A DNA stretch of 63,985 nt, counting the filler, from Candidatus Hydrogenedentota bacterium (GTDB lineage: Bacteria > JBFMHD01): the NCBI GenBank assembly GCA_040752395.1. It is 6 parts of 6 records of this genome, joined end to end, with 100 filler letters (N's around TTAATTAATTAA, not from the genome) between each part and the next. Parts side by side here need not be neighbours in the genome. Positions count along the whole stretch, not along the records: positions 1 to 10,894 come from JBFMHD010000084.1; positions 10,995 to 21,739 come from JBFMHD010000085.1; positions 21,840 to 32,534 come from JBFMHD010000086.1; positions 32,635 to 43,314 come from JBFMHD010000087.1; positions 43,415 to 54,057 come from JBFMHD010000088.1; 1 more part is not named here. One strand, 5' to 3'. Below, in pieces: positions 82 to 52,617 of the stretch. The notes under the pieces were generated by a model. The model was given only the letters and a program-made list of their open reading frames with translations, searched no databases and was not told the DNA's origin. The first letter of the stretch is position 1; each line of letters opens with the position of its first letter. The position numbers and the translations under genes were made by a program.

Positions 82-112
82 CTCCTCTGAAAAATATTCT
101 AACTCTAATAAT
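82..112 (-). promoter_or_regulatory. 31-bp conserved site, copy 1; supplies the rpsC SD
   Basis: ATTATTAGAGTTAGAATATTTTTCAGAGGAG, 6 nt before the ATG. Confidence 0.85.
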
Positions 113-187
113 ATCAAATAGAAGCAAGAGGCAAGAAGCAAGATAACGGAAAGAAAGATAACGAAAGAGGCAAGAAAACGTCTGAAT

Positions 188-218
188 CTCCTCTGAAAAA
201 CTTCGCAACCCTAATAAT
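188..218 (-). repeat. 31-bp conserved site, copy 2 (internal)
   Basis: ATTATTAGGGTTGCGAAGTTTTTCAGAGGAG. Confidence 0.85.
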
Positions 219-364
219 TTGGGCTACAGGCTACAGGTTACGGACTACAGCCGGCTGGAGCCAAAAGCCCAGAGCCTGCTGAAAAGTCTTGAGTCCTGAG
301 TCTTGAGTCTTGAGTCCTGTTTTGACTCACGACTCACGACTCTTTTTATATCATCTTTAGTTTT

Positions 365-460
365 TCATCCTTTGTGTAGAGCGCAAAAACCCAAAAATGC
401 AATAACCCAATAACCCAAGAACCCAATAACACAATAGTGTAGAGCGCAACCCGCGCTCAT
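365..460 (-). other. Possible 31-aa hydrophobic mini-ORF inside a repeat module
   Basis: MSAGCALHYCVIGFLGYWVIAFLGFCALHKG*, preceded by GAAGGAG of site 3 at 5-nt spacing. Confidence 0.3.
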
Positions 461-465
461 GTTGA

Positions 466-496
466 CTCCTTCGAAAAACTTCGCGACCCTAATAAT
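466..496 (-). repeat. 31-bp conserved site, copy 3
   Basis: ATTATTAGGGTCGCGAAGTTTTTCGAAGGAG, identical to copy 7. Confidence 0.85.
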
Positions 497-550
497 TTTA
501 CGAAGTAAGAAGTATCAGAAAAAATTTTAATCTTTCAATCTTTGAATCTC

Positions 551-892: not shown

Positions 893-894
893 AA

Positions 895-3661: not shown

Positions 3662-4000
3662 ATTGCAAATTGTAAATTGCAAATTTATTTGCCTACTTTG
3701 GGTCTTGTGACCCTCACTACGTCATTTTTCCATTCATTTTGCAATCTCCAATTTCCAATCTTCAATTTTCAATTGTGCCTCTTGCTTCTTGCTTCTTTCG
3801 TCATCTTTCTTTCCGTTATCTTGCCTCTGAGAAGTCTTGAGTCTTGTTTTGACTCACGACTCTTTTCATATCATCTCATATAAAAAGTTAAAAGTTAAAA
3901 GTAAAGAAAGCGAAAATATACACTTCCTTGCCGTATCTTTGAATCTCTGTGCCTTTGTACCTCTAACTACAATTTCCAATATACAATTCGACATACGCAG
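3662..4000. repeat. Mosaic of heptamer modules between rpsJ and rplC (TTGCAAA/TTTYCAA inverted arms, TCTTGCT, GAGTCTT/GACTCAC, AAAGTTA)
   Basis: 7-nt periodic tracts shared with other arrays; no full 31-bp site here. Confidence 0.85.
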
Positions 4001-4008
4001 TATGTCGC

Positions 4009-5563: not shown

Positions 5564-5570
5564 AGTTCTC

Positions 5571-5902
5571 CTCCTCTGAAAAACATTGTAACTATAATAA
5601 TATCAAGTAGAAGCAAGAGGCAAGAAGCAAGATAACGGAAAGAAAGATAACGAAAGAAGCAAGAGGCAAGAGGCAAGAAAACGTCTGAATCTCCTCTGAA
5701 AAACGCTGTAACTCTAATAATTTGGGCTACAGGCTACAGGCTACGGACTACAGCCGGCTGGAGCCCGAAGCCCGGAGCCTGGTGAAAAGTCTTGAGTCTC
5801 GAGTCTCGAGTCTCGAGTCCTGTTTTGACTCACGACTCTTTTTATATCATCTTTAGTTTTTCATCCTTTGTGTAGAGCGCAAAAACGCAATAACCCAATA
5901 AC
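5571..5902 (-). repeat. Composite array between tRNA-Thr and tuf with two 31-bp sites (copy 4, 5571-5601, tuf SD; copy 5, 5691-5721)
   Basis: Same module order as 82-420 with different repeat-unit counts. Confidence 0.95.
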
Positions 5903-5908
5903 GCATAT

Positions 5909-5981
5909 AGCCCACGGGCGGATTCGAACCGCCGACCACCTCCTTACCAAGGAGGTGCTCTACCGCCTGAGCCACATGGGC
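5909..5981 (-). tRNA. tRNA-Thr(GGT), CCA not encoded
   Basis: GCCCATG acceptor stem pairing with CGTGGGC, D-arm GCTC..GAGC, anticodon arm CCTCC-TTGGTAA-GGAGG, T-loop GTTCGAATC. Confidence 0.96.
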
Positions 5982-9202: not shown

Positions 9203-9207
9203 TTGGT

Positions 9208-9450
9208 CTCCTTCGAAAAACGCTGTAACTATAATAATATCAAGTAGAAGCAAGATAACGGAAGAAGTGAGAGGTATCAGGACAGGCTACAGGCTACGGA
9301 CTACAGCCGGCTGGAGCCAAAAGCCCGGAGCCTGAAGCCAACATATCATCTTTAGTTTTTCATCCTTTGTGTAGAACGCAAATCGCGCTCATGACGACTC
9401 CTTCGAAAAACTTCGCGACCCTAATAATTTCACGAACTTCTCGCTTCTTC
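9208..9450 (-). repeat. Composite array with 31-bp sites copy 6 (9208-9238, SD of debranching gene) and copy 7 (9398-9428)
   Basis: AGAAGCA/AGAAGTG/GGCTACA modules between two sites. Confidence 0.93.
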
Positions 9451-9469
9451 TCCACCTACAACTGAAGCA

Positions 9470-9862: not shown

Positions 9863-9867
9863 CGTGG

Positions 9868-10040
9868 CTCCTCTGAAAAACGCTGTAACTCTAATAATTC
9901 GGGGTACAGGCTACGGGCTACGGACTACAGCCGGCTGGAGACAAAAGCCCGGAGCCTGAAGCCAACATATCATCTTTAGTTTTTCATACCTTGTGTAGAG
10001 CGCAAAAACGCAATAACCCAATAACCCAATAACCCAATAG
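9868..10040 (-). repeat. 31-bp site copy 8 (9868-9898, SD of the DUF35 gene) plus GGCTACA and AATAACCC modules
   Basis: ATTATTAGAGTTACAGCGTTTTTCAGAGGAG, identical to copy 5. Confidence 0.92.
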
Positions 10041-10142
10041 TTGAGTACTCCTCTCATAATAGGGTCGGACCTTTAGTTATGAAAATGGGGACGGTTATGA
10101 TTTTTACCCTGCAACAAATTAATCGAATCAAATCCTGACTCA

Positions 10143-10766: not shown

Positions 10767-10894
10767 CTCCTCTAAAAAACATTGTAACTATAATGATATC
10801 AAGTAGAAGCAAGAAGCAAGATAACGGAAGAAGTGAGAGGTATCAGGACAGGCTACAGGCTACGGACTACAGCCGGCTGGAGCCCGAAGCCCGG
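10767..10894 (-). repeat. 31-bp site copy 9 (10767-10797) plus modules, truncated by contig end
   Basis: ATCATTATAGTTACAATGTTTTTTAGAGGAG; following modules match 9239-9330. Confidence 0.9.
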
Positions 10895-10994: not shown

Positions 10995-11067
10995 ATAACC
11001 TCCGTTAATTATAAATTATATATAATATTCATAATAATATATATAATTTATAATTAACGGAGGTTAT
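10995..11067. repeat. Perfect 30-bp inverted repeat with 13-nt loop upstream of dnaN
   Basis: ATAACCTCCGTTAATTATAAATTATATATA (10995-11024) is the exact reverse complement of 11038-11067. Confidence 0.9.
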
Positions 11068-12173: not shown

Positions 12174-12321
12174 TACTTTCTTTGTTATCTTGCTTTTACT
12201 TCCACACCAATTGTTCATTAAACATATTTCATTAGTCTTCGGTGGAGTTTCTTTATCCTGGTTTTTGCCTTTTGCTTCTTGTTTCTTTTGTTATCTTATA
12301 ACTAAGTGGTTACGAGGTTAA

Positions 12322-14235
<1,914 letters not shown>

Positions 14236-14325
14236 AGATTCAGACTTCTTACTTCTTACTTTTTTCGTTATCTTGCTTCTTGCTTCTACTTGATATTATT
14301 ATAATTACAATGTTTTTCGAAGAAG
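14236..14325 (+). repeat. CTTCTTA/TCTTGCT modules plus 31-bp site copy 10 (14295-14325) at the gyrA start
   Basis: ATTATTATAATTACAATGTTTTTCGAAGAAG, 4 nt before the ATG. Confidence 0.88.
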
Positions 14326-14329
14326 TTTT

Positions 14330-22001: not shown

Positions 22002-22007
22002 GTCTTT

Positions 22008-32882: not shown

Positions 32883-32932
32883 CGATATATATTAATATTA
32901 AGAGTAATCTTTCAGTTATAGGTGGTGAAGAA

Positions 32933-33000
32933 ATAAGAAGTGAGAAGTGAGAAGTATCAGATAACCTATAACCGAAAACAAAGACACCGAGACTAAGAAG
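32933..33000. repeat. AGAAGTG and AACCTAT/AACCGAA heptamer module upstream of the giant gene
   Basis: Matches the reverse complement of 6076-6105 and the AGAAGTG units elsewhere. Confidence 0.75.
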
Positions 33001-39000: not shown

Positions 39001-41592
39001 CGTGAAGACTTTATTGATATTTATTTAAAAGACCTTGAAGATGGTGTGAATATTTTAACTGTAAAAAATACAACTGATCAGGGAGTTGGTTGTGTTGCAC
39101 CAGCAGTTGCAATTTTTAATGTAAAGAAACCGCCTACGTTTACAAAATTTACCGGTCCTGAGGGCGATGTAACTTCAGCTTCAGTCAGCTATACCTGGGA
39201 AGCAAAAGATAATACAACAGACGTATCAGAGATACGATATCGGTTTAGTATCTCTGCACCAGTGTCTATTGTTTCAGTGACATATCCTTCTGGTCAGACC
39301 CAGCAGATTACTGCAGGTATGTTTACAGACTGGGACACTGCTACCTCGATAACCATCAATCTGACATATGAGGGCGCATATTCGATAACTATTCAGGCAC
39401 GGGATGCAGGTGGAGATTTAGTCCCACTTAATGATGATGATAATCTATCAAATTTTGAATGGGACATCGACCACTGGGTTGCAAGCAATTATACTGAAGA
39501 ACTTAAAACCACCAAGGAATTTTTTGTGGGATTATTTCCTGAATCAATTATTACCAAAGGACCATATATTTATGAGCAAATCACTGAGACAGCGTTACCC
39601 GGGACCACGGTAGATTCAGCTGATACCGATGACGGCGATTCACGTACCTGGGCATTCCGCCGACTCCCAACGAATAAAATAGTTCTGGCTGAAACCCCAA
39701 AGGGCGATATTAATGGCACAAATAAAAACTTTATTTTGTCTAATGCTACTACGCTTGATGATATTATTAAATATAGAATCGATAATACCACGTACACGGA
39801 TCGAACTAATTTGATATTAGCTACTTCGGATTATAAAACACTGACACTACCAACTGCTCCATCATCGGATGTCGAGGTGTTGTATCGGTATAATAATAGT
39901 CCTGACAGCAGATCATGGAACGCAGTTACAGTTAAAGTAAATGGTGTGCCACTTGTTGATCGCACTGGCGATACTTTTTACGGGACAGCTCCAAATGAGT
40001 TCAAGGTTGATTTTACTAATGGTTCTATTCTTTTGAGAGAGGGTGTATTAGATACGCCGATTATCAATTATTCAGTTGATTTTATGAAAACCTCATATAT
40101 TTATGATCAGGTTGAATTTGACTGGGATGCCCTTATCCCACCCTCCAGTGATAATATAAAGGATACTACTGCTACATTTAATGTATATTGCGATGGTGTT
40201 GCTGGATTCCCTATTCTCGGAACCCCCTCACGTAAAACGACAATCACCAGTAATTTAGCAGATGGTACCTATACTATAAAAGTATATGCAAAAGACTCAT
40301 CAGGGAAAATAGACCCGTCACCAGCAGAAATTACGTTTGGCATTTATGCGCATCCTATTGTGGTCATAGACCGCGTTATTGCTATAAACCAGTATGATCC
40401 AACAGATACTCTTTTAGTGACTCAGGGAATGACCGTTAACTATAGTTTGTTTCAATTCTATTATTCTGCTGTGCCATCATTACCAACTGCCTCGATCTTA
40501 AAATACAGTTATGATACAGGATTTGGGTTCATTGATACCACAGCCACTATGGTTAAGGTTAAATATAATTCTGAGGGCATGCAATCATTTAATTTGAAAG
40601 CAACTGATTCACGTAATAAAACAGGAGAATTATCGACTCCATTTACTTTTATCATAGGGTCGAACCCCAGTGTGCGTATTACACAAATTATGAATTCAAG
40701 AGGAGAAACAACAGTAATATATGATACCACATCAAAGGTAGAGGTTAATACAGATACAGTTATTATTTATTTCAAGGGAAGTGATGCTATTGATACGTCA
40801 GGTGCTATTCGATATCAATATAGGTTTGCTACGATGGGTTCGTTTCTTCTCACAGGTAACAATGGGTTTGATAGTTTTATAACTTTATATCTTACAGCAT
40901 ATTCAGATGGTATTTTATTGTTTGAGGTCAAAGCCATAGATTCTGCTAATAATTCTTCTGAGGTGGATACAATAAGCATATATAGAAACACTATTAAGCC
41001 GACAATTACTTTTGTATCGCCAACTCCCTCGCCTGATAACACAACTCTTTATGTTAATTCTGCTACATTTAAATGGATAGCAACTGATAGCGCTTTTACA
41101 GACGCTGTAATAACGTATGATATCATCTTTCAGAAACCTGATGGAACTATCCAGGCTTATCTTGGAACCTTAAATGAAACCACATTTACTGATTTTGGGT
41201 CAGGTAACTATATTTTTACTGTAATAGCACGAGATGAAGCAGGTAATACGGATTCGATCCAGAGAACCTTTAATGTAAGTGTAATTTTACAATTCGATGA
41301 CCCGGGCCACCCCTATCCTAATCCTGTTGTAGACCAGGAATATGCTTGTATATATTTTGATTTAAATGGTCCCGCAGATGTTACGATTAAGATTTATAAT
41401 TTAAATCAGGAGTTAATAAAAACCATTTATCTTCCAAACAGAACAGGTAATGCTGATTTAGACAAATATTTATGGTATCTTGATAATGATGATGGTGATA
41501 AAATAGCAAGTGGTGTATATTTTTACAGGATTGAAGCCACATCTCCATCGGGTAATATCTCTTCTTTTGGAAAGATTGCGATTGTAAAGTAG
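33016..41592 (+). CDS. Giant secreted beta-rich protein (2858 aa): tandem duplication of a ~1370-aa unit plus T9SS-CTD/FlgD-like end
   Basis: Signal peptide ending SSLQA; C-terminal YPNP..IYNL..ELIKT..W...G..IASGVYFY..KIAIVK. Confidence 0.85.
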   Translation: MGYKVIFMKVDKVDFQNWIKILIAIFILTLTSSLQAKIKIISGPAVEDELAGVGSDGYDSYATQIYLEHAYPDNDPFTFSFHHKFATRYSYSDLHYDLLDSPTITVNGDQVTIYTAGTPYYTNEAVVFDSGLIIFGETDPITEMQVNALPGDPILNYSFLPDSALYPNCTNPLHLKKVRFEWRITLDSDSSVIDTNVYYRYRHNEYPNDGGINISDWSETKVFIPGGPASDVVVYDNLIDGVHKFEIEAYDSATNVLVDTVVIWFNVQVKPYLKFLAHPGDDINVSEPINLNLAYQWSGYDPVDATNLLYSFNFARDYTGTYTFVTGGTSYDSTVTQTGIYRFNIYVSDGYNTGAIFYDKQGDIYNVYDLPHIMTSVQISETLSPYIFLERAFCERAGVDTNPLWNNDNTSDTDIINIRAALAYTPDNENFTYYPEGSIIDGSVINSISWYNGVVPFGFYSADVFMPHQGFSLENPFGRIRQIPDAGDDADIYNVSSPYTADNIFGSGESQRGSMLGLDPYYDNTSSRPLYWNPTHGSTIYHNEVVITLRNLTRDGVRPNGGSRNHQFYFSWRLNDIYNSSPEFDDPGMNGELYRKTTSQGFDWRYSDKTFNDDKFYPPFTWSENHRDDEPVYDPKNSIGGVELAMYHLEDFIDIYFGDLQDGWNHFTALCADKDGYISLEPVTLSFYVADPPRIPRDGDIEYGNVVDVEGLAGPTGSYFERAATYAWVGKDNTTPQSQLLYRYTISGPGKNSIWTDWASDTIVSFELEYDGTYEFFVQARDLGADLNSDVPQIGDDNFSSVRSKRIQFYSRAETVMRKYIVVTDSALAGASTITADSDDGVGTTYAFPRLPALTDVLVEEPFGTIDGTNKQFTLKYDAYFIIYVTINGTITTDYTIGGTNNNILTFNTAPAENSEILVKYTFKEGTSDTEVYNIPKIKDRFGVLYTDVTPLNPSTLAGSREYKINYATGSIIFGVPPSDTPTLEYSVNVFDNSLDTSVQKFPIKFEWQSFLPRFDPSDNSAISDTQAEYDVFLDGVPVLVKTNSRYYEIVEPMDDGFHTFSVRAFRGVLGLNDESEVEIPFIVSMKPVVYIDTVLAVNKEDYSDSYRIYNGEVINFGAIEIHYHAISPINIKIDSYYIDAAGSLITTSSTSVIITFNSEGLKSIGVKASDILGNVGEFSYFTFTISSNPFIEIDTVSFIDTTYPGSDTGPHIVRGDTGLFIFHGRDAIDSISQLVYEYNKNFDPQSVIFISTDTNGTSTSVFIPNFDLIGSNEGQGQFTFEVRSKDRNGNYSTSDSFVFFRDSKAPFFNFISPTPDSGTQMLSPADVTIAIDISDSGFSDTTVWYTLILYNSGMGIVYEDTGNGDTQRSYVDLPVDSYSIVVILTDQVGLKYTDTRVFYVVPFGASRIILLRGPAITGELAGLGTTVDNYYTQTTIECDVDDLNSKTFSFRHHAQYRGGLLSDYEYLTNPVIKVLGQPVTIKTDPSTLLEASVDTVTGKITFGAVPSAIPTIDYSIIADSTYPRTDTLFNPLSITTAEFEFTVWSGVDVVDTTTAIITQHNVYKNDGSIIQGSLSDTIYLTEQSQTISNVFANLVDGLHQYIIYAISPSAGLMDTLMISFQVQVKPVATITNAPPAELYVTEPFTQNLIYQWEASNTFEGETIYYTYEFLCNQTGLLYRETVLRTDTTISVSTRDTYYFNLYVSDGYNTSVYIYDNGGSLRQSTDTPHQSTALLIMGNKPSLYFERVFVEKAGVVSGTPYSSADGVDTLNPVADLLYEDNNLWYFVSSPSSYYNSISWYNGYGPFGFNGYIISLGPNSPLLYSKYGELRLDADVFEITVSQNYDIQAGSGEYQRKSKLGLSSCNPGDDPLRISWNPSNGSTLRINKQDYLNSWIINGTSVQSIPEEYTNEVIFTVRGVAPAGIENNALYYAWQLENINGSTGFTNPGVNNGRIETTIGGDKYFATYEWTENHVTGAPFDDPSTTIGGTPKTFYHREDFIDIYLKDLEDGVNILTVKNTTDQGVGCVAPAVAIFNVKKPPTFTKFTGPEGDVTSASVSYTWEAKDNTTDVSEIRYRFSISAPVSIVSVTYPSGQTQQITAGMFTDWDTATSITINLTYEGAYSITIQARDAGGDLVPLNDDDNLSNFEWDIDHWVASNYTEELKTTKEFFVGLFPESIITKGPYIYEQITETALPGTTVDSADTDDGDSRTWAFRRLPTNKIVLAETPKGDINGTNKNFILSNATTLDDIIKYRIDNTTYTDRTNLILATSDYKTLTLPTAPSSDVEVLYRYNNSPDSRSWNAVTVKVNGVPLVDRTGDTFYGTAPNEFKVDFTNGSILLREGVLDTPIINYSVDFMKTSYIYDQVEFDWDALIPPSSDNIKDTTATFNVYCDGVAGFPILGTPSRKTTITSNLADGTYTIKVYAKDSSGKIDPSPAEITFGIYAHPIVVIDRVIAINQYDPTDTLLVTQGMTVNYSLFQFYYSAVPSLPTASILKYSYDTGFGFIDTTATMVKVKYNSEGMQSFNLKATDSRNKTGELSTPFTFIIGSNPSVRITQIMNSRGETTVIYDTTSKVEVNTDTVIIYFKGSDAIDTSGAIRYQYRFATMGSFLLTGNNGFDSFITLYLTAYSDGILLFEVKAIDSANNSSEVDTISIYRNTIKPTITFVSPTPSPDNTTLYVNSATFKWIATDSAFTDAVITYDIIFQKPDGTIQAYLGTLNETTFTDFGSGNYIFTVIARDEAGNTDSIQRTFNVSVILQFDDPGHPYPNPVVDQEYACIYFDLNGPADVTIKIYNLNQELIKTIYLPNRTGNADLDKYLWYLDNDDGDKIASGVYFYRIEATSPSGNISSFGKIAIVK

Positions 41593-41614
41593 GCAGAATA
41601 TCTGTATTTTAAGG

Positions 41615-43156
41615 ATGCTTAAGGCATTCATCTGGCAGAAAATTTTTTATTCTTCGTGCCTCAAACCATTGGTTTTAATGGCTATGGTTCTATATAATGA
41701 AAAAAAGGTTTTTTTTGTAGTATATTGCATACTATTTTATAGTTCAGTAAACCTCTATGCTGGTGGCAAAGGTACTTCTGGTGCACAATTTCTTGATATT
41801 GAAGTAGGGGCACGGGCAATGGGGGTGGGTGGTGCGTTTGTTGGATTAGCTGATGATGCTGAAGGAATTTATTATAATCCGGCCTCGCAGGCTTTCTTTC
41901 TTAGAAAAAATATATTAATACATCACGATTCGAGATTTTTTGATAATCAGTTCAACTATTTCGCTTATAGTTCTCCGCTAAAAGAGAAACACGGCCTTTC
42001 GCTTAATTTTACTTATCAAGATGCAGGTAATTTTGAAGCTTATGATATTGCTAACAGGAGAATGGGTAGTTTTGATGCGAGAGATTATGCTCTTGGCTTT
42101 GGCTATGGTTATAGACTTAATAAATCTTTTGGTGTAGGGGCAAATTTAAAATTTATCAGGTCTACAATAGCATCGTATGATGCTGAAGCTATTGGTTTAG
42201 ATGCCGGACTTTTATTCAGGTTTAATGAGAAGTTATCAATAGGAGCATCGTTAAGAAATATCGGCAGCGGAATAAGATTTATAAGACAGAAAGACGATTT
42301 ACCTTTAAATTTTCAAGCAGGTATCGGCTATACACCTTTTAAAAACTGGAATATCCTTTTTGATATTAATAAATCGATAGATGATGATAAATTCAGAATT
42401 CATTTAGGCACTGAATATTGGTTTCTTGGTCGTTATGGTATAAGAGTGGGGTATAGGGATGTAGATGATATGGGAGGCGATGTAGATGGTTTAACAGCGG
42501 GTCTGGGACTACGGTTTTTTATAGAAGAACCTGATAAAAGAGCAAGACGCGAGTTTTATGCAGGTGAACCATCGTTAAATTATGCATATATCCCACAGGG
42601 TGATTTCGGGAAAAGTCACATTCTTTCTTTATCATTTGCTTTCGGGAAAATAAGAGGGGCGGTTGATAAGATTAAAAAAGAGAAAGAAGCGAGATTGCGG
42701 ACCCCTGAGGAAATCCAAACAGAGAAAGAGAATTATGTGAAAAAAGAAAAATTTAAAGGAAAACTCATCGCTGTTCTTGATTTCAGGAATACTTTAGAAG
42801 AGGACGGATACGAATGGTTAAGAAAAGCGTTAAGAGACATAATCGTTTCGAAATTACAGAATAAATACACGATTCTTGAGAGAAAAAAAGTGAAAGAGGT
42901 CGCAGAACTGGTTGACCTCGCTGGCATCCAACTTAAAACCGATGAAGATTTTTTACAATTCGGCAGATTCTTAGAAGTCGATGGCTTTATAGCAGGTGCT
43001 TTTGCTGTTGAGGCTGATATAATTCATCTTGAGGTTGGCATCTATGATGTTAAATCCTCTGTTGTAAGAGATAGTTTTATGGTGAAAGAAAAGGTCGAGG
43101 ATGTTTTTAACATCGGAGAGAACCTTGCTAAACGTGTAGAACGGAGCCTCAAATGA
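41615..43156 (+). CDS. PorV/PorQ-like (UPF0164) outer-membrane barrel fused to a CsgG/FlgO-like domain
   Basis: FL.I.VGARAMGVGGAFV..ADD...IYYNPA; C-terminal IAVLDFRN...LER; start may be later. Confidence 0.8.
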   Translation: MLKAFIWQKIFYSSCLKPLVLMAMVLYNEKKVFFVVYCILFYSSVNLYAGGKGTSGAQFLDIEVGARAMGVGGAFVGLADDAEGIYYNPASQAFFLRKNILIHHDSRFFDNQFNYFAYSSPLKEKHGLSLNFTYQDAGNFEAYDIANRRMGSFDARDYALGFGYGYRLNKSFGVGANLKFIRSTIASYDAEAIGLDAGLLFRFNEKLSIGASLRNIGSGIRFIRQKDDLPLNFQAGIGYTPFKNWNILFDINKSIDDDKFRIHLGTEYWFLGRYGIRVGYRDVDDMGGDVDGLTAGLGLRFFIEEPDKRARREFYAGEPSLNYAYIPQGDFGKSHILSLSFAFGKIRGAVDKIKKEKEARLRTPEEIQTEKENYVKKEKFKGKLIAVLDFRNTLEEDGYEWLRKALRDIIVSKLQNKYTILERKKVKEVAELVDLAGIQLKTDEDFLQFGRFLEVDGFIAGAFAVEADIIHLEVGIYDVKSSVVRDSFMVKEKVEDVFNIGENLAKRVERSLK

Positions 43157-43414: not shown

Positions 43415-46400
43415 GTTCCTTATGTAATAGCTCAAGAAAGAGATTGGTGGGATAGTATTTATATCTTTAATTATGATAATTCTGATACTCAGGTTATAGG
43501 CAGAGGATTAAATGTTGGTAATAATGCTATAATAACTTTTTACAATAATTTAGGTGCTGTGACTTGTAAAATAGCATTTGAAGATAATTTAGATACAATG
43601 CCATTAAATATGGTATTTTCGCCCGCGTTACCTAAATTTGTTACAACTAACAGCAATGGTTTATTTTTAATAACAAGTATCAGAGACCCCAATGCAGGAC
43701 TTGGGTTAAGTAATCCTACTGAAAAAGATTGGGGCGGTATAGCTGTAGTGGAGAATAGTAATAATGATTCTGCGGTATTTAAAAATGTTATAATGCGGTA
43801 TGGCGGATCTGATAAGAGTTATAGTGTGGATTGGTATGCGTTAAGAGAGTATATAGCAGTTAGAAATCTGACAGGTGGTATCGAGATAGATTCCTGTGAT
43901 ATCGGTGGTGGTAGCAGTGATACTGGTATAGGTATTGCTCTACAAAAATCAGGTGGTTTGAGATTAACTAATTCCTGTATCCAGGTTTTAGAAGAATGCC
44001 TAGATATTAATACTGATGACAGTGGTAGTGGGAATATAGGTGTGTTAATATCGCAATCAAATCTACAAACCTATAGGAATGGGATACGTATTGATTTAGA
44101 GGGTGAGACCGTTGTTTTAGATAATGTTTATATTCAGGGTGATGGTATTGGAGGTAAAACTGATACAGGTATTTATATTTTTGGTAATACCGGTCAATTT
44201 TTAATGCGGAATTCTACTATCAATAATCTTGATGCAGGCATTGAGAACAAAGCAACTCCGGGTATTGTTCTTATAGGTGATAGTTTTGCTTCAAATAATC
44301 CTGGAGGTAACACGTTTAATAATGCTACATGGTTTATAGCAAACATAAGTACTGGTACATTAAAAGCAGAGAATGACACATTTGGTAGTGGACTTACTAA
44401 TTTAGAGATTGATGCAAGACTGCGAGACGACAATGAAGGTTTCAGTCGCATAGACTTTTTATCTCAACCATCTGTGCTTAATAAAATAGGTGACCTGCCT
44501 GGCGGTTATAAAAACGTTAATGAAACCATACCTGTTCTTGCTATAAGAGCAGGCGGTGATCCGAATAGTGATACTCTAAATTATATTAAACTTACGAATC
44601 TTGGTACTGCAAATTCATCTAAGTTGAGTCTTTATTTAGTTGATGATGCTAATAATGATTCTGAGATCAATGCAGGTGATACATATATTACAGAGATTAC
44701 AGCAACAGGCAGTAATACGTTTGCAAAAACAAATATAAATTATCAATTTTATACTGATAGTAAATCACTTTTAGTTGCTTGCGTATTCAAATCATATGCT
44801 GATTCAGGGTCCACCTTCAGAGCTCAGCTTGATACTTCTTCGTTTAATTTTATCGTTGCTGATACAGGTTCGGTCTCTGCTCTGGTTAATGCAAATGATA
44901 TAATTGTTAACAATACTTCACCCGTAGGCGCTATTATAAGCGAGGTCTGGGATGCTGGCGCTACAAACTGGTTTATTGAGTTATATAACCCAACAGGAAT
45001 AGTAGCTGATTTAAAAGGAGGTACCATAGTAACTTCTCAAGGAGCATTTATTATCAATGGTCAGGATTCAGTGCAGCCGTATGGCTATTTATTATTTGCT
45101 GGCAATTCAAGTGTCAGTCCTGATAGTCTGGTACCAACAGCTATATTTAACGGCAACCAAAATGATACCATAATTTTATATGACTCTACGGGCTTAGTTC
45201 TTGATAAAATAGGGTTTAGTAGTGTCACTGATGCACAATTTTACGAAAATGCACCAGCACCTGCATTTAATAACGCTACTCACACACTTGAACGAAAACC
45301 AGGTGATCTATTCCCTTACTCCGGGAATGGTACGGATAATAATGATAATTCACAGGATTTCATTGTAAATGACGATGAAGATTCTACGCCACAGAACAGG
45401 TTTAGTTTTAGAGAACCATACGCTTTTGAGCTTGATGCCCCGAGCACAGTACTACTTGGGGTAGGGTTTACTCTGACAATAACAATACGAGATAATATCG
45501 GAGCAGTGGTAAATAATTTTGAGGATTCGTTCTTTGTAAATATCACAAGTGGTGCAATAACTCAATCCGAGACATATCTTGCTCAAAATCAGGCAGGCAG
45601 TACAACAGTAACCTGTACAATCACAGGTTATACAGGTGCTGCTACAATTGATGCTCGACTGGATTCGCCTGTTGCAGGACTCAGTGCTGAAACAACAGCA
45701 GCTGTAACAATTGAGACACCACCGATACTTGTTGTAGAGAGCGTATCAGTTTTAGCTGATTCTATTAATGTTGGTGAAAATGGCGAGACTATTCTGGTTG
45801 TGGTTAAAAATAATGGTGGAGCTACGCTCCAGCTTACTGATTCAAGACTATTATTTTCAAGAGCTGGTAATCCAATGAATGATAGTTTCACATTTATCTG
45901 TGTATCTGGCGATACAAGGATTACGCAAGCACAGAGTAAAATCCTTACTTTTATAATTAATACCTCAGCTACTATTTCAACAGGTCCAATAATGGTTGAT
46001 TTTAGCTGTACCGGCTCTGATATACTCGGTTATAGTTATATAACTAATGATGCATCAGCTGATACAAAAGATACATTTGTTGTACAGACCGGTGCACAGC
46101 TTGAGATATTAAGTGTAACGCTAAATTCTGATACTTATTCAACCTCACAAACAGGCTGCACAGCAACAGTAGTTATCCGTAATAACGGTGAAGCAGGACT
46201 TGTTATAGATTCTGATGAGATAGAGCTGATATTCAGATTATCCGATACAGATGTAAGCGATTCTTATCAATATTCATTATACTCCCCAATATCTGATACT
46301 GTACTAATTTTAAGTTATACTGTTCAAAACTATATTTTTACTTTTAATATAGCAGATTCTGCTACTCTTGGTAGTATTAATGTAGATGCTACCTGCACTG

Positions 46401-49400
46401 GTGAAGATATTAATACAGGTGGTATATTAGTTGATACGAGTGCCACTACTTCGGATACCTTTGTTCTTCTAACAAAAGCGAATCTTGAGACTGTGAGTAT
46501 AAGTATAGCTGCGGACAGTGTAACGCGAGGCTCAACTGTAACAGTGGTTATTAGTTTAACGAACAGCGGTCAAGCTTCGATGTGGATAGATAGTGCGGTA
46601 TTAATTTGCACGAGAGCGAGCACAGGGGTGAATGTGAGTGGAGAGTATATTCAGAGCTATACCACAAATTTACCGTGGAGCATAAGTGGTGGTCAGACGT
46701 GGACCGAGACGATGTATATGTATGCGGCCACAAATGCGAGTACAGGTGCGATATTAGTAGATTTGAATACTAAATGGTATGATACATATATTCAGGTAGC
46801 GAACTGGCGAGTGGACGCAGATACCAAAGATACGTTTGTGATGCAGACACCGGCAAGTATAAGTATATTGAGTATTCTTGTGAATTATCCTACCGGGAAT
46901 CCGGTATATCAGGGTGGTAAGAACATAGATGTAGTATTCACGATAAGGAATAGTGGTGAGGCGAATGCGGTATTATATGATGTAGTAGATAGTGTATGGT
47001 ATGATGGTGTGAGTGCGAGTGATAGTTGGAGCATAGCGGATTCAAGCGGCTTAGTTGGTCAGGTAGTGAAAGGGAACACAAGTAACAGCACGTATACGAT
47101 AAAGGTAGATGTAAATGCGAATGCGGTACCAGGTGTGCATTATTACAGTGGTGGGGTATATAGCCGAGATGAAAATTGGGAGACATTCACAAGTATAGAT
47201 ACTACCTATACTGTACTTGATGACATAACGGTGAACACAGCGAGTGCGGTCGCGATATTCAGTATATATGCGGTGCCTGAGACAGTAGTTCAGGGTCAGG
47301 GTATAGCTGACTCGTGGATAATATATGTTACGATAAAGAATACAATCCAGAATTCAACAACATCTTTATACATAATATCGGGTGACAGTATACGGATAAG
47401 GGTAGATGGAGTGACAGACATAAGTAGTGGTCATAATTGGAGTGTTGTAAGTGATACGTATTTAAGTCCTGACACTGTGATATTATCAAGTGATATAGAT
47501 GCGAATGATTCAGTGATCTGGCGGTTTTATGTAACGAGTGTAGGGGATTCATTAGGTAGTATGCGGATAGATGCCAAGGATATAACAGGTACTAACACAG
47601 TGAGCGGATTAGTGCATAACGGCACGATGAATGATGCAGCTGCACCGGATTCAGTGCAGGTAATCTCCAAAGCGAATCTTGAGATAATGAGTATCAGTAT
47701 AGCAGTTGATACGATGTCAGATAACCAGAGCGGTGCAGACAGCAAGCAGGTATTGGTAGTGATAAGGAACACAGGTCAGAGTAATGCGATAAATATTAAT
47801 GATACATTAATATTTTTAAGGAGTGATAGTGATATAACGGATTCATTTACAGTGATAGACACAGGTAATCCAACAACGATAAATGGGAATGACACAAAGA
47901 CGTTTGTGTATTGGGTTAGCATAGATTTGGATGCGCCGACTGGTGTGATAGCGATAGGTGCTACGATTACAGGGACAGATGCGACTGTACCGAACAGTGT
48001 ATCAACTACTGACTCATTGACTGGTGGTGATACTATTTATGTTCAGCGAAGAGCTATTGTAATAGTTGATACAGTAATAGCAACCGACACAACGGTTGAA
48101 CGTGGGGCAACAGGTAAAACTGTTACTATATATTTGAAAAACATTGGTGAAGCTACTGCTAATATTAATTCAAATACAGGTGTAGCATTATATATAAGCG
48201 GTGCTAATAATCAGGTTATTAGTAAGATTACTAATCCGGGTGATACTTTTATTTTTACAGGAAGTGCGCCTTCCTGGCCATCGAGTTTAAGTGGTGGCGG
48301 CACTACTGCCATTTCATTTACACTTGATGTTAGCAACACCGCGAACACAGGCTCGGTTTATCTTGATGGCGCATGCACCTATGTTGATGTTAATGCTCCA
48401 AATTCAGTAACAGGAGACAGTAAATCATTATGGTATGATTCATGGGTTATAATATCGCCTGCTGAACTCAGGGTTTTATCTGTACAAGCAAAATATTTAG
48501 TATCAAGAGCCGAGACACCTGTTATAGTTACTTTTGTTATTCAAAATATAGGTGGATATGATGCACAAGTTGGTACAACTGCGCTTACGTTAAACGGTTC
48601 ACAGACAGGTTATACTGTAACATACACAGGAGCAACTTTACCACAGACTATTACACCTGGCTCTACTTTTACAGGAACTTTTACTGTCGAAGTAAGTGCA
48701 AGCGCTGCTTTAGGTACCACGGTTTTAGATGTTAGTGCTGGTGGGACTAATGTATTAACAGGTTCTGCTTTAAGTGATGCAGGCGCAGATGCTCCTGATA
48801 CCTGGGTCGTACAGACACAGGGTCAGATAAGTATTTCGTCAGTGGTTGTAACTGAGAATTCTGTGTTATATAATAATGATACAATAACTGTTACTTATAC
48901 AGTAGTAAACAATGGTCAGGCAGGGGTCTATATTTTGTATGATTCGCCTTTATGGGATGGTTCATTTAAACCGGATTCGTTTGTTAAAGTATCGACCTCG
49001 CTTGATTCTACAGTAGCTTTGAGTGGGAATGGTGCTTCAACTACGTTTGTTTCAATTTATAAAACAGTCTATGCTGCTACAGGGACCATCAATGTTGATG
49101 CGTATATAAAAGCAGTTGATGCAAATGATACTGATATAGATGCTTCTGATTCGTATGCTACAGCAGGTGATTCTGTGATAATCACTACACCTCAACCATT
49201 ACGTATTCTATCTATAATTTTACAGAATGATTATAATGATGGTGATACACTAACACAGGGCACAGGTGGCGCACCTAATATGATATTTGTTGCTGTAGTT
49301 GTTAAGAATGATATGACCGACCTGAATGATACCTCTGGTATATTTGATACCTCGTTTACTACCCTGAGTTTCAAGATAGATACAGGTGGTGGTTATGGAT

Positions 49401-52165
49401 ATGTTACAGCGAGCGGATATAATGGTATAGGTGCATATACAGAGATCGGCAACGATACAATAGTAGGACCAAACTCAACTGATACTCTGATTTATCAAAT
49501 AACGGCCATAGGTAATAACACAGGAACTTTAAGGATAGATGCGAGTTTATCAGGTACTTCTGGTATCTCTGGTTTATGGAACGAGTCCACAGTTGGTGAT
49601 ACAGTAGGTTATGGAAGGGGTAGGGTGGTAGATCCAGGCGAATTACAAATAACAGCTATCTCGTGTGATTCTGCTGCTGTCACATGTGGTCAGCAAGGTT
49701 TAATAGTCTATGTCACATTAACCAATCCGAATCCGAATGCATCAGATATTATAATCAATCAGGCACCAGAATTGGAGTTCAGACTCGGGTCAACTGATAA
49801 ATCCGCAGAATACATAGATACCTGGATGGGGCCTGCTGCACCATTTACGTTAAAAGCAGGCCAAACACGAACAGAGACATTTAGAGTAGAAGTTCTGTCT
49901 ACTGCCCAGCCAGGCACAGTAACAATAGAACTGACAAGTGATACATATCTTGATGCTAATGATACAACTTATAATAATACGCCGAGTGTAAGTGATACTT
50001 TCACCTGGAGAGTGCAGACACCTGCGATATTACAAGTTTTGTATGTTGCGACATCATCTGATACTGTGTTACAGGGTAGTAATTTTACATTATATATTTG
50101 TGTTAAAAATAATGGTGGTGATTCAGCAGCTGATGCAGATAGTTTATACATAACTATCAAATTTGATAGTGGAACGATAGATAGCACGGATTCGTTTACT
50201 TTAAATTATATTAGTGGTACGTCTTCATTATCAGCGAATAGCAGTGAAACCTTTACTTATAATGTTAATGTGAATGCTGCAGCGCCTGTATCACTTATGA
50301 CAGTTACCTGCACAGTCGCAGGTGTTGATACGAATAAAAGAACTGCTATATCTGACACCAGTGGGTTTGATACCTTCAATATTCAGGGTGCTGGTGCGCT
50401 TGAACTTGTCAGTGTTACAAGTGATACTTATGCTATAGTTAGTAATCTTGCGGGTATCAGGATAGTGTTAGGTTTTAGGAATAATGGCAGCGGGGATGTA
50501 ACAAATATTGATACGCCATCGCTGAGATTAATCCAGAATTCTTCAAATATAATAAGTTCATTTACAATTACCAGTACCCAGAGTGATTCAACTTTCCCAA
50601 TCACTACACTTGTGGCAAATAGTAATATTGTTTATTGTACGTTTACATTAACAGCAGGGACTCTTGCGTCCACAGCTACAATTTACTTACATGGTGATGT
50701 TAGTGGTACGGCTCAGATAGTAGGTGGCGGCACTGATACTACCAGAGATACTGATATTAGCCCGTATAGTGGTGATACATTTATTGTTCTCACGCCAGCA
50801 TCAGTATCAATAGGTGCTGTAACTAACTCTGCTGGTACACAACCTGTGAATGCAATAGGTTCTGGAACAATTACTATAAATGTATTATTAAGTAATTCTG
50901 GTACTTCAGATGCTACGGCGATTGTTGATACGAGTAATATCATAATTTATGATGCACTGGGTAATAATATCACTTCTCAGTTTAACGTTACTTTAATAGG
51001 TGGCACTTCTGTGGTTGTTTCTGGTAGCGGTTCAACCTATGCTCAATTCAGTATCAATGTACCGACTACTGAATCTTCAGCTTTGCTTGGTAGTTTCAGA
51101 GTTACAGTAAATGAGGCAGGGATCACTATAAAGGATGCTTTATCAGGTGCCACGATAGGAAATCCGACTAATAATACCACAGAAGAGAACAGGCAGGAGA
51201 TAATGATTGCTGCGGCGCTAAGGATTGATAAGCTTACTTTACCATATCCATTTAATTTTGATACTGTGGTTTTAACTATTGGTTCTGTATCAATCTTTAC
51301 AGGGAATGATATTACAACTGGTGGTCCGAACGGTCAAACATTTCTGAATCAGAACACGGTAGCAAATGGTGATTCGGTTATAATAATGTTACAGCGAGGC
51401 GATACAAGTACCATTGATACGCCGATTACACCGGCATCGAATGGTTTTACCAGTGCATCTGATTTTGATAGCGATATAGCTGGTGCAGATGCAGCTCTTT
51501 CAGGAGGCGATACCCAACTTATAGCTAACGGCTTACTTATTTTGTCTATGTGGAAAAACCAGGTAACTGATGCGAATTATTTAGGTAAAACCGATACTGT
51601 TGCAGAGACTTTATATATTCAAGTTACTAACATAGCTTACAGCGGCTCAGATGGTGCTACGAAATTGAAGGTGTATAAATATTTTAATGGTGTCTGGCAG
51701 TTGCTTGCTGGTGGTTTAGAGATTACTGGTGTGGCTAATAATTATACCTTAACGTTCCAGGTCAGTCCTGATACGACTTATGCGCTTTCAGGGTTATCAG
51801 TATTCAGGATAGTTGCAGCTGGTGTCGGGCTTAATAATGAGGGTAGAGCGGCTAATGTTATAGTATATCCGAACCCATTTATACCGTACGATGGCAATGC
51901 TGCTACAGGTGATTATACTACTGGTATTTATTTCGGAGCGCTTCAGACAAATGGTCAGGCTGATGGGTTCCCATCCGGGACCGAACTTAAGATATATAAT
52001 GTTGTAGGTGAGCTGATTGATGATGTGAGAACAACTTCTGCAGGGTTAATCAACTGGGATGCGAAGAACAAGGGTGGTCGCGAGGTAGCGAGTGGTGTGT
52101 ATATATTCTATATAAGGACGCCGGACGGCTCCCATAAAGTCGGCAAATTTGCGATTATAAGATAG
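43415..52165 (+). CDS. Giant surface protein (>2900 aa, 5' truncated): beta-helix-like region, lamin-tail-like domain, many ~125-aa Ig/CARDB-like repeats, T9SS-CTD/FlgD-like end
   Basis: Frame open from contig edge; IISEV...FIELYNPT; repeated V..N.G.A and DTF.VQT.A.L; C-terminal YPNPF..IYNVVGEL..WD.KN..G..VASGVY..KFAIIR. Confidence 0.85.
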   Translation, partial: VPYVIAQERDWWDSIYIFNYDNSDTQVIGRGLNVGNNAIITFYNNLGAVTCKIAFEDNLDTMPLNMVFSPALPKFVTTNSNGLFLITSIRDPNAGLGLSNPTEKDWGGIAVVENSNNDSAVFKNVIMRYGGSDKSYSVDWYALREYIAVRNLTGGIEIDSCDIGGGSSDTGIGIALQKSGGLRLTNSCIQVLEECLDINTDDSGSGNIGVLISQSNLQTYRNGIRIDLEGETVVLDNVYIQGDGIGGKTDTGIYIFGNTGQFLMRNSTINNLDAGIENKATPGIVLIGDSFASNNPGGNTFNNATWFIANISTGTLKAENDTFGSGLTNLEIDARLRDDNEGFSRIDFLSQPSVLNKIGDLPGGYKNVNETIPVLAIRAGGDPNSDTLNYIKLTNLGTANSSKLSLYLVDDANNDSEINAGDTYITEITATGSNTFAKTNINYQFYTDSKSLLVACVFKSYADSGSTFRAQLDTSSFNFIVADTGSVSALVNANDIIVNNTSPVGAIISEVWDAGATNWFIELYNPTGIVADLKGGTIVTSQGAFIINGQDSVQPYGYLLFAGNSSVSPDSLVPTAIFNGNQNDTIILYDSTGLVLDKIGFSSVTDAQFYENAPAPAFNNATHTLERKPGDLFPYSGNGTDNNDNSQDFIVNDDEDSTPQNRFSFREPYAFELDAPSTVLLGVGFTLTITIRDNIGAVVNNFEDSFFVNITSGAITQSETYLAQNQAGSTTVTCTITGYTGAATIDARLDSPVAGLSAETTAAVTIETPPILVVESVSVLADSINVGENGETILVVVKNNGGATLQLTDSRLLFSRAGNPMNDSFTFICVSGDTRITQAQSKILTFIINTSATISTGPIMVDFSCTGSDILGYSYITNDASADTKDTFVVQTGAQLEILSVTLNSDTYSTSQTGCTATVVIRNNGEAGLVIDSDEIELIFRLSDTDVSDSYQYSLYSPISDTVLILSYTVQNYIFTFNIADSATLGSINVDATCTGEDINTGGILVDTSATTSDTFVLLTKANLETVSISIAADSVTRGSTVTVVISLTNSGQASMWIDSAVLICTRASTGVNVSGEYIQSYTTNLPWSISGGQTWTETMYMYAATNASTGAILVDLNTKWYDTYIQVANWRVDADTKDTFVMQTPASISILSILVNYPTGNPVYQGGKNIDVVFTIRNSGEANAVLYDVVDSVWYDGVSASDSWSIADSSGLVGQVVKGNTSNSTYTIKVDVNANAVPGVHYYSGGVYSRDENWETFTSIDTTYTVLDDITVNTASAVAIFSIYAVPETVVQGQGIADSWIIYVTIKNTIQNSTTSLYIISGDSIRIRVDGVTDISSGHNWSVVSDTYLSPDTVILSSDIDANDSVIWRFYVTSVGDSLGSMRIDAKDITGTNTVSGLVHNGTMNDAAAPDSVQVISKANLEIMSISIAVDTMSDNQSGADSKQVLVVIRNTGQSNAININDTLIFLRSDSDITDSFTVIDTGNPTTINGNDTKTFVYWVSIDLDAPTGVIAIGATITGTDATVPNSVSTTDSLTGGDTIYVQRRAIVIVDTVIATDTTVERGATGKTVTIYLKNIGEATANINSNTGVALYISGANNQVISKITNPGDTFIFTGSAPSWPSSLSGGGTTAISFTLDVSNTANTGSVYLDGACTYVDVNAPNSVTGDSKSLWYDSWVIISPAELRVLSVQAKYLVSRAETPVIVTFVIQNIGGYDAQVGTTALTLNGSQTGYTVTYTGATLPQTITPGSTFTGTFTVEVSASAALGTTVLDVSAGGTNVLTGSALSDAGADAPDTWVVQTQGQISISSVVVTENSVLYNNDTITVTYTVVNNGQAGVYILYDSPLWDGSFKPDSFVKVSTSLDSTVALSGNGASTTFVSIYKTVYAATGTINVDAYIKAVDANDTDIDASDSYATAGDSVIITTPQPLRILSIILQNDYNDGDTLTQGTGGAPNMIFVAVVVKNDMTDLNDTSGIFDTSFTTLSFKIDTGGGYGYVTASGYNGIGAYTEIGNDTIVGPNSTDTLIYQITAIGNNTGTLRIDASLSGTSGISGLWNESTVGDTVGYGRGRVVDPGELQITAISCDSAAVTCGQQGLIVYVTLTNPNPNASDIIINQAPELEFRLGSTDKSAEYIDTWMGPAAPFTLKAGQTRTETFRVEVLSTAQPGTVTIELTSDTYLDANDTTYNNTPSVSDTFTWRVQTPAILQVLYVATSSDTVLQGSNFTLYICVKNNGGDSAADADSLYITIKFDSGTIDSTDSFTLNYISGTSSLSANSSETFTYNVNVNAAAPVSLMTVTCTVAGVDTNKRTAISDTSGFDTFNIQGAGALELVSVTSDTYAIVSNLAGIRIVLGFRNNGSGDVTNIDTPSLRLIQNSSNIISSFTITSTQSDSTFPITTLVANSNIVYCTFTLTAGTLASTATIYLHGDVSGTAQIVGGGTDTTRDTDISPYSGDTFIVLTPASVSIGAVTNSAGTQPVNAIGSGTITINVLLSNSGTSDATAIVDTSNIIIYDALGNNITSQFNVTLIGGTSVVVSGSGSTYAQFSINVPTTESSALLGSFRVTVNEAGITIKDALSGATIGNPTNNTTEENRQEIMIAAALRIDKLTLPYPFNFDTVVLTIGSVSIFTGNDITTGGPNGQTFLNQNTVANGDSVIIMLQRGDTSTIDTPITPASNGFTSASDFDSDIAGADAALSGGDTQLIANGLLILSMWKNQVTDANYLGKTDTVAETLYIQVTNIAYSGSDGATKLKVYKYFNGVWQLLAGGLEITGVANNYTLTFQVSPDTTYALSGLSVFRIVAAGVGLNNEGRAANVIVYPNPFIPYDGNAATGDYTTGIYFGALQTNGQADGFPSGTELKIYNVVGELIDDVRTTSAGLINWDAKNKGGREVASGVYIFYIRTPDGSHKVGKFAIIR

Positions 52166-52180
52166 GAGTCGTCGGAATAT

Positions 52181-52558
52181 ATGAAAGAATCATTAAGATA
52201 TTTAGAAAACGCAAAAGAGATATTAAAGAGTGTAAAGATTGAAAATGATACCTATATGGATATTAAGCCTGTAAGAAAAGCTTTTGGAACAGCATACCTT
52301 GCAGTTACAGAAGCGATAAACGAATATCTCATAAATAAAAAGGGTTTTCTAAAAAAAGATCTACCTAAATCAGTTGAGGCATATAGAGAAGCGCTGCGAA
52401 AATATATATCGATTCATAATGGTAAATTGATGCAAGAATTTGAAAAATTATATGATTCATTGCATATAGCAGGTTATTACCGTGGTCTTATTTATGATGC
52501 TAATATGGTAAAAGATGCATTAAAAGCTGCAAAACATTTTATAGAGCGGATAAGTTAG
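52181..52558 (+). CDS. DUF5618-like (HEPN/PaREP1-like) small protein
   Basis: E.LRYLENAKEIL.....E...Y.D.K.VR.A.GTAYLAV, Y..LHI.GYY.G. Confidence 0.7.
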   Translation: MKESLRYLENAKEILKSVKIENDTYMDIKPVRKAFGTAYLAVTEAINEYLINKKGFLKKDLPKSVEAYREALRKYISIHNGKLMQEFEKLYDSLHIAGYYRGLIYDANMVKDALKAAKHFIERIS

Positions 52559-52586
52559 AGACCCTACTTTTAACTTTTTAGATGGA

Positions 52587-52617
52587 GTCATTAGAGTTAG
52601 AGCGTTTTTCGAAGGAG
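52587..52617 (+). promoter_or_regulatory. 31-bp site copy 13; probable SD for an in-frame TTG at 52627
   Basis: GTCATTAGAGTTAGAGCGTTTTTCGAAGGAG followed by AAAGATTC octamers. Confidence 0.75.

Follow-up and report, generated by a model that had tools for sequence, protein, structure and literature searches.

What is the function of a short DNA repeat that ends a few nucleotides before the start codons of unrelated core genes? This question is raised by a 31-base site in a stretch of 64 kb from Candidatus Hydrogenedentota bacterium (assembly GCA_040752395.1), which is composed of six pieces joined by N spacers and is called the window in the following. A first-pass annotation of this DNA had regarded the site as the attachment site of a candidate cassette system. 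According to the analysis reported here, the 31 bases are probably the gene-proximal terminal module of lineage-specific mosaic intergenic repeats and would work as a portable gene-start signal.

With up to three mismatches allowed, the 31-base pattern has 13 matches in the whole window and none in 100 dinucleotide-preserving shuffles. Eight copies are exact (188, 466, 5571, 5691, 9208, 9398, 9868 and 21971), two carry one mismatch (82 and 24722) and three carry two (10767, 14295 and 52587). They are located on four of the six pieces (nine in piece 1, one in piece 2, two in piece 3 and one in piece 5), so that both the pattern search and the piece map bear out the 13 copies on 4 unlinked contigs reported by the first-pass annotation. 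That annotation had also proposed a profile scan. Run on the window, an nhmmer profile derived from the 13 copies returns the same 13 and no others with E <= 1.3e-6, all in sense orientation and eight of them 4-9 nt before a start codon, and the next match has an E-value of 1.7. Owing to this gap, there are no decayed copies in the window, none within genes and none in antisense orientation: the site family is all-or-none. Similarity among the copies stops exactly at GGAG in every copy. The site ends with AGGAG except for one AGAAG before gyrA and one AGGGG before an aminotransferase gene; these are the only deviants in the last letters, and both are located right at the junction between repeat and gene.

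For 8 of the 13 sites, a long open reading frame (ORF) starts with ATG, GTG or TTG 4-9 nt after the GGAG end, in agreement with the eight cases noted before. On the minus strand, these are the sites at 82-112 (6 nt before the ATG of rpsC), 5571-5601 (7 nt before the ATG of tuf) and 9208-9238 (5 nt before the GTG of a glycogen-debranching-type (GDE-type) enzyme), all with the class A flank defined below, and the class B site at 9868-9898, 5 nt before the ATG of a DUF35-like OB-fold gene. On the plus strand, class A sites lie at 14295-14325 (4 nt before the ATG of gyrA, ending with AGAAG), 21971-22001 (6 nt before the GTG of purA) and 24722-24752 (9 nt before the ATG of a class-V aminotransferase gene, ending with GGGG). 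The plus-strand site at 52587-52617 has a unique left flank and is found 9 nt before a TTG that is in frame with an outer-membrane barrel gene; an alternative ATG of this gene lies at 52717. Three minus-strand copies are not followed by a start codon within 3-13 nt and sit 57-120 nt upstream of a gene start: the class B site at 188-218, which is the upstream partner of site 82, the class B site at 5691-5721 and the class A site at 10767-10797, 57 nt before an ORF6N-domain gene with its own AAGGAG. The two class C copies on the minus strand (466-496 and 9398-9428) precede mini-ORFs. Four tandem pairs bracket intervals of 247 nt (466-188), 75 nt (188-82), 89 nt (5691-5571) and 159 nt (9398-9208), as anticipated by the first reading, which had given about 75-250 bp.

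The mini-ORFs behind the sites comprise 31 codons at 433-496, where the reading frame begins in a small hairpin, 10 codons at 9366-9428 and 24 codons at 139-215 of a contig from another genome, L001 (see below); their length is not conserved. Those of 31 and 10 codons start with MSA and overlap a 6-bp hairpin, in which a G-U change on the sense strand keeps the pairing. A conserved leader peptide after the C sites was considered and rejected: the two mini-ORFs have 31 versus 10 codons, and the ATG is missing from a third array although its flank is the same.

The Shine-Dalgarno role of the site, its geometry and its modular anatomy can be read directly from the sequence. The first-pass annotation had proposed that the site carries the Shine-Dalgarno sequence of core genes. 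This holds, since AGGAG lies 4-9 nt before the starts and the predicted pairing is stronger than for other genes. It amounts to -9.1 kcal/mol on average for the site genes (n = 8) and to -4.6 kcal/mol for the others (n = 28; Mann-Whitney p = 0.002), computed with an assumed canonical anti-Shine-Dalgarno sequence because the window contains no 16S gene. As the Shine-Dalgarno sequence lies at the gene-proximal end of the repeat, repeat DNA can be present before essential genes without loss of a ribosome-binding site. Thus, of the earlier proposal that site-bearing cassettes insert before essential genes without silencing them, the ribosome-site part stands and the cassette part is not supported.

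Repeat finding and the alignment of ten arrays revealed that the 31 bases are the stretch common to three longer repeat classes. Class A sites are always preceded by TCTTGCTTCTAYTTGAT plus pyrimidine-rich 7-nt and 15-nt units (7/7), class B sites always by a palindromic module with the core CCAGCCGGCTGTAGTCCGTA (4/4, contig L001 included), and class C sites have TTCGTRAA before them and a small hairpin behind them (2/2). Since the class of a site is tied to its left flank, the repeat unit is longer than 31 bp. Two pairs of copies at separate loci are identical (466 and 9398; 5691 and 9868). On average, copies differ at 3.96 of 31 positions within a class (25 pairs) versus 6.15 between classes (41 pairs). 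That copies with the same flank are closer to each other than to those of another class is expected if whole multi-module blocks were copied, not if successive insertions occurred at one site.

The order of the modules is collinear in the ten aligned arrays. A C site is followed by the small hairpin with or without GGGTTATT repeats, a conserved 26-mer and an optional long GAGTCGT/GACTCAAG hairpin; then come the palindromic module, an optional B site with ATTCAGACG behind it, the pyrimidine-rich units, the A site and finally the gene. The arrays are thus mosaics of few sub-modules in variable combination, as known from BIME and BOX elements. The full mosaic array lies between rplV and rpsC (76-550, minus strand) and comprises a C site, the small hairpin with GGGTTATT repeats, the heptad hairpin, the palindromic heptad module, a B site, the pyrimidine-rich spacer and an A site. 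The array that extends from a tRNA-Thr gene to tuf (5564-5908, minus strand) shares with it blocks of 94-187 nt that are 89-95% identical. In front of the debranching-enzyme gene (9203-9469, minus strand), a C site leads to an A site without heptad hairpin and B site, and the array before the DUF35-like gene (9863-10142, minus strand) ends at a B site and is 96% identical to contig L001 over 138 nt. On the plus strand, the array before the aminotransferase gene (24458-24761) contains a heptad hairpin of -34.9 kcal/mol, the palindromic module, the pyrimidine-rich spacer and an A site. Pyrimidine-rich units and an A site precede purA (21840-22007, plus strand), where the array continues past the start of the piece, and pyrimidine-rich heptads with an A site make up the entire gyrB-gyrA spacer (14236-14329, plus strand). 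At the end of another piece (53903-54057, plus strand), the contig breaks within a heptad hairpin and palindromic module. The rpsJ-rplC spacer (3664-4008, minus strand) is filled with repeats as well: it has the heptad hairpin in sense orientation and the pyrimidine-rich module inverted, and it lacks a site. Inverted and site-less pyrimidine-rich units are also found at 32900-33000, 60810 and 63874-63967. Unlike these sub-modules, which occur in both orientations, the site itself is never inverted in the window. Tandem Repeats Finder yielded 89 rows, mostly with a period of 7 or 8, in spacers and a few gene ends.

Some further observations concern the neighbourhood and the reach of these repeats. 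The spacer upstream of gyrB (12174-12324) contains diverged pyrimidine-rich units and no recognisable site, and may be an old or degenerate array. The tRNA-Thr gene (GGU) upstream of tuf is located at 5909-5981 with a TTGACA-containing stretch before it, and the repeat array begins right at the 3' end of the tRNA. The 7-nt intergenic units extend into coding sequence at 52689-52753, 61267-61291, 62331-62363 and 63874-63907. In the outer-membrane barrel, they code for the N-terminus (MILLTSYFLLLTFSLYA), which is hydrophobic and resembles a signal peptide; in the genes at 61200 and 62300, for N-terminal stretches that are likewise hydrophobic; and in the gene that ends at 63907, for the final residues. 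The barrel-region proteins at 52717 and 61200 show no homology to each other.

How could the remaining part of the site act? Read along the sense strand, it is composed of an A/T-rich ATTAT, TAKRGT, six variable letters, a purine, a U-rich stretch and AGGAG. TAKRGT fits a -10-like TAnnnT in all 13 copies, with the T, the A and the final T kept. Behind the variable block, 7 nt after the hexamer, a purine is found that is a G in 12 of 13 copies. In sigma-70 promoters, the -10 hexamer is followed by a discriminator and then by the start, and the layout of two arms around a variable centre fits this geometry. Hence, the site may be a promoter too: the -10-like box and the variable discriminator would direct a start at the conserved G, and the predicted leaders of about 18-23 nt would be U-rich and end in a strong Shine-Dalgarno sequence. 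Each gene would keep its own 4-9 nt spacer and its own start codon, as the repeat halts at the Shine-Dalgarno sequence. The upstream modules would complete an intergenic punctuation unit, in which two terminator-like hairpins of 7-nt repeats are followed by an unstructured, pyrimidine-rich spacer.

The hairpins and the start-less copies agree with such a role. The long heptad hairpins precede the sites, have folding energies between -18.6 and -34.9 kcal/mol (z-scores of -2.5 to -5.2) and match the orientation of the gene in 5 of 5 cases. Behind them, a short U run is present on the sense strand and a better one on the opposite strand. The heptad hairpin is found in 5 arrays and the palindromic module in 7; both are optional and outside the 31 bases. 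In 5 arrays, hairpins with short U runs separate the site from the upstream gene, and should these act as transcription terminators, a promoter behind them would be required. Both these terminator-like hairpins and the start-less copies 57-120 nt upstream of genes fit an upstream promoter better than a bare ribosome site. A different arrangement is seen at 10995-11067 directly before dnaN, where a 35-nt inverted repeat with 97% complementarity and a 3-nt loop carries in its right arm a GGAGG that would serve dnaN and in its left arm the complement. Therefore, the ribosome site of dnaN would be buried in a long A/T-rich hairpin.

Several points weigh against a portable gene-start signal. All 13 copies are directed toward the next gene, as stated in the first-pass annotation, but with all genes of a piece pointing the same way in five of the six pieces, this co-orientation is inseparable from a simple strand bias; unlike orientation, the start-codon spacing of 4-9 nt separates 'towards the gene' from 'on one strand'. 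In favour of the signal, a site 3-10 nt from the start is found at 8 of the 15 genes whose upstream spacer measures at least 60 nt versus 0 of 23 with a shorter one (Fisher p = 1.3e-4), but this test is partly circular since the repeats themselves make long spacers. No -35 element is common to the three classes. In piece 1, a simple scan with the sigma-70 consensus detected 33 promoter-like sites versus 32.4 expected from shuffles, i.e. no enrichment, and it flagged only one class A copy, as TTGCCT-18-TATTAT. The pyrimidine-rich spacer, if transcribed, can pair weakly with the Shine-Dalgarno sequence, and with the spacer in the transcript the docking region is no more open in site genes than in others (mean unpaired probability 0.39 versus 0.46, p = 0.16). 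Furthermore, the reading requires that the module first came to lie 4-9 nt before eight unrelated start codons.

Which other readings compete with the portable gene-start signal? A purely RNA-level signal in the 5' untranslated region, on transcripts that come from well upstream and with no promoter role for the site, appears unlikely. It could be an enhancer or standby site, a processing site yielding monocistronic mRNAs, or the binding site of a regulatory protein. The A/U-rich and U-rich stretches just 5' of a strong Shine-Dalgarno sequence, the unstructured pyrimidine-rich leader and the lack of a conserved -35 box would suit such a signal, and one array lies within the S10 gene run, where read-through transcription is plausible. 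On the other hand, three copies have no start codon to serve, and the short-U-run hairpins in five arrays, if terminating, require a promoter behind them. A folded RNA element is improbable as well: the B-to-A intervals have fold z-scores of +2.58 and +1.46, i.e. they are unstructured, the gene-proximal leaders show z >= 0 in 7 of 8 cases, and among the Rfam families at gathering thresholds only tRNA matched in the window. As there is no conserved or covarying fold either, the structured-RNA reading of the leaders was rejected. Still more doubtful is the idea that the site is the conserved end of a non-autonomous transposable element, recognised for instance by a HUH-type transposase via a subterminal hairpin, with the Shine-Dalgarno sequence incidental or selected later. 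Such an element would be expected to show the all-or-none conservation, the 3' boundary that is exact in all 13 copies, the imperfect palindromes upstream, the uniform strand orientation and the confinement of the family to this organism and one stray contig, with at most two right halves per genome in 25 nearest-phylum genomes. Yet there is no inverted copy of the site and there are no terminal inverted repeats: a search for those of the type found in miniature inverted-repeat transposable elements (MITEs) gave no inverted pair in the rpsC array, and only internal palindromes and weak pairs in two other arrays. Moreover, no transposase is encoded by the window ORFs scanned, the hairpins are optional while the site is constant, and a start-codon distance of 4-9 nt at eight loci needs a very unusual target choice.

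The first-pass annotation had favoured a fourth reading, in which a tyrosine recombinase or another dedicated enzyme recombines the 31-bp sites and thereby inserts or excises the segments between them. Tandem direct repeats do bracket short segments, the right boundary is sharp at GGAG and common to all copies, and the palindromic module joins the B site no more than a few nt from that site's left edge, as in any modular repeat. Polymorphic blocks inside the site also form a mosaic, with all four combinations present for TA/GA x AAT/AGC and for AAT/AGC x AG/GA, which implies that copies have exchanged sequence or mutated recurrently; the mosaic can be accounted for by ordinary gene conversion too. 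A recombinase-type site with a variable centre is not what the 13 copies look like, since dyad symmetry is absent. The best arm score of each copy is reached by 115-300 of 300 shuffles, and this lack of symmetry in the site also applies to an attC-like folding. The partners of all four tandem pairs differ, at 3, 6, 3 and 7 of 31 positions, the central letters included. Each class has left flanks strictly of its own, which makes the repeat unit longer than the site. Nor do the supposed interchangeable modules behave like a cassette array: integron-like cassettes with diverse single ORFs were not found in the four inter-site intervals (75-247 nt), which are two homologous series, non-coding, of low complexity and without a conserved ORF. 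Their lengths differ mostly by the copy number of 7-8-nt units, among them the GGGTTATT and pyrimidine-rich units, or by presence or absence of the heptad hairpin, with breakpoints away from the sites. Xer, integrase or HUH genes, for which the first-pass annotation had suggested looking nearby, did not turn up: a scan of 37 window ORFs against Pfam yielded no recombinase, integrase or HUH domain and no integron-type integrase gene. Finally, 13 copies per 64 kb exclude a dif-like role. All in all, this reading is very improbable.

If the site is the end module of a mosaic repeat acting as a portable gene-start signal, its dissemination would need no dedicated site-specific recombinase. Homologous or microhomology-guided recombination with its end point at the Shine-Dalgarno sequence would copy whole multi-module blocks from one intergenic region to another, and slippage of the 7-8-nt units would afterwards alter the lengths of the modules. 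The end point is suggested by the fact that similarity stops at GGAG and that the genes have their own spacers and start codons; the Shine-Dalgarno sequence is the only sequence shared with every target gene. A bolder version is possible, though we consider it rather unlikely: an actively copying 'gene-start element' might install itself at the Shine-Dalgarno sequences of unrelated genes, essential ones too, via Shine-Dalgarno-anchored recombination or some enzyme, and replace the native upstream region with a standard terminator-promoter-ribosome-site unit. If this were true, the bacterium would have largely standardised its core-gene expression signals by copy-and-paste.

How far does the repeat family extend? 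With 13 copies per 64 kb it must be abundant in this organism. A pattern scan of species-representative genomes found one contig of 2.2 kb (L001, 1-2198, in genome G001). It carries a class B module, 96-98% identical to that of the window, before the 24-codon mini-ORF and a gene for 661 amino acids (aa). As the site occurs nowhere else in G001, whose gyrA shares only 57% identity with that of the window, the contig is probably foreign to its bin and would be a binning error that stems from a close relative of the organism studied here. Among 25 genomes of the phylum of G001, whose gyrA identities to that of the window range from 44 to 57%, the full pattern (<=2 mismatches) was found in one, again as L001. 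The right half of the site occurs at most twice per genome in these 25 genomes, with 0-1 for the reversed control, and a DNA search with the repeat yielded L001 plus two short matches at chance level. Neither the metagenome contig collection nor the viral contig collection contained a match to the pattern, and the relatives of the debranching enzyme in metagenome contigs are at most 43% identical (best 80 loci). As far as the collections searched show, the family does not extend beyond this organism and very close kin.

In the window, the S10 run of ribosomal-protein genes, which is normally compact, is split by the repeat-filled 345-nt spacer between rpsJ and rplC (3664-4008) and by the 475-nt spacer between rplV and rpsC (76-550). 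The idea that only this organism has an insertion in its S10 operon was considered and rejected, since a gap of 101-501 nt between rplV and rpsC is present in all five nearest-phylum genomes checked (L108-L112). Four of these five gaps contain a hydrophobic ORF of about 75 residues, as read by eye from the printed gaps, and the gap at L110 has a long hairpin of TGGTAAC-type heptads. Consequently, the gap at this position and heptad hairpins as such predate the repeat family.

Among known systems, the expression-signal repeats REP2 of Neisseria and IR-A/IR-B of Borrelia would be the closest described kind by function. In the passages of Delihas (2011; PMC3184786) devoted to them, REP2 and the Borrelia plasmid repeats are intergenic, have no terminal inverted repeats, lie upstream of ORFs and carry a promoter and a ribosome-binding site. 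Like these, the window repeat is dispersed between genes, located immediately 5' of ORFs (4-9 nt in 8 of 13 copies) and equipped with a ribosome-binding site. The same passages place two stem-loops toward the 5' end of REP2/IR; in the window, the heptad hairpin (5 arrays) and palindromic module (7) are optional and beyond the 31 bases. REP2 includes the ATG, whereas the window repeat stops at the Shine-Dalgarno sequence and leaves spacer and start codon to the gene. Promoter activity is reported there as shown for REP2 and is predicted for the window repeat; the likeness of the two is one of description. Unlike REP2/IR, the window repeat has a variable mosaic of 7-8-nt tandem units in its upstream part, serves core housekeeping genes (tuf, rpsC, gyrA, purA) and is much denser, with about one copy per 5 kb.

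BOX and BIME elements can lie in either orientation and are not known to be anchored to start codons or to supply a ribosome-binding site. The window repeat probably differs from them further in having no REP-type GC-rich palindrome and no sequence relation. It resembles Streptococcus pneumoniae BOX and enterobacterial BIMEs, as portrayed in the corresponding part of PMC3184786, in being an interspersed intergenic repeat of few sub-modules in variable number and combination. Mycobacterial MIRUs, treated in the same source, are likewise short repeats in operon spacers compatible with downstream expression. According to the part on these elements, they carry small ORFs that overlap the flanking stop and start codons, whereas the mini-ORFs found here (31, 10 and 24 codons) are unconserved and the Shine-Dalgarno sequence serves the gene.

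The nearest real analogue of the cassette idea, which works without a site-specific enzyme, might be the PeSL cassettes of T4-type phages. From what is given in the relevant portion of Arbiol et al. (2010; PMC2839356), they are units of a stem-loop terminator and a promoter that separate genes, and homologous recombination between copies can shuffle or excise the segments in between, with mini-circles shown physically. As described there, PeSL flank non-essential phage genes; the window repeat belongs to a bacterial chromosome, its inter-copy segments are mostly non-coding, and no exchange was observed. The first-pass annotation had also noted a resemblance to the arm of difSL. In the sections of PMC5357621 and PMC2965235 that deal with it, difSL is built from a pair of imperfect inverted repeats, TTTCCGAAAA and TTTTCTTGAAA, on either side of an 11-bp centre and is located beside xerS. 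The length of 31 bp is the same, and the bottom strand of 5 of the 13 copies has TTCGAAAA, which agrees in 7 of 8 letters with part of the left arm. There is no second arm in any copy, and unlike difSL and Xer sites as presented in these sections, the repeat lacks inverted-repeat arms and an adjacent recombinase, occurs in many copies instead of one and has differing centres. In the literature, supplementary files aside, the right-half motif string appears in no paper, and searches on repeats with ribosome sites found no paper on that subject.

Apart from the repeats, the window encodes three giant surface-type proteins of 2858, 2868 and 2204 aa (regions 33016-43156, 43559-53661 and 54201-62261). 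One of them has a match to the CHU_C tail of type IX secretion, and an alpha-amylase domain is present in one. Downstream of each comes a barrel-type gene or an unknown one, and twice the gene of a small helical protein (DUF5618; 23S rRNA intervening-sequence protein family) is interposed.

If the module works as proposed, unrelated genes such as tuf, rpsC, gyrA, purA and others would be provided with one ready-made expression signal in one lineage, a natural counterpart to the standard promoter and ribosome-site parts of synthetic biology. Repeat DNA could then spread into essential operons harmlessly because the signals of the next gene come along. The small class of expression-signal repeats represented by REP2 and Borrelia IR would gain a much denser member from an uncultured, deep-branching bacterium. 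The strict all-or-none conservation of the site offers a handle on the rules of promoters and translation starts in a lineage without a cultured member.

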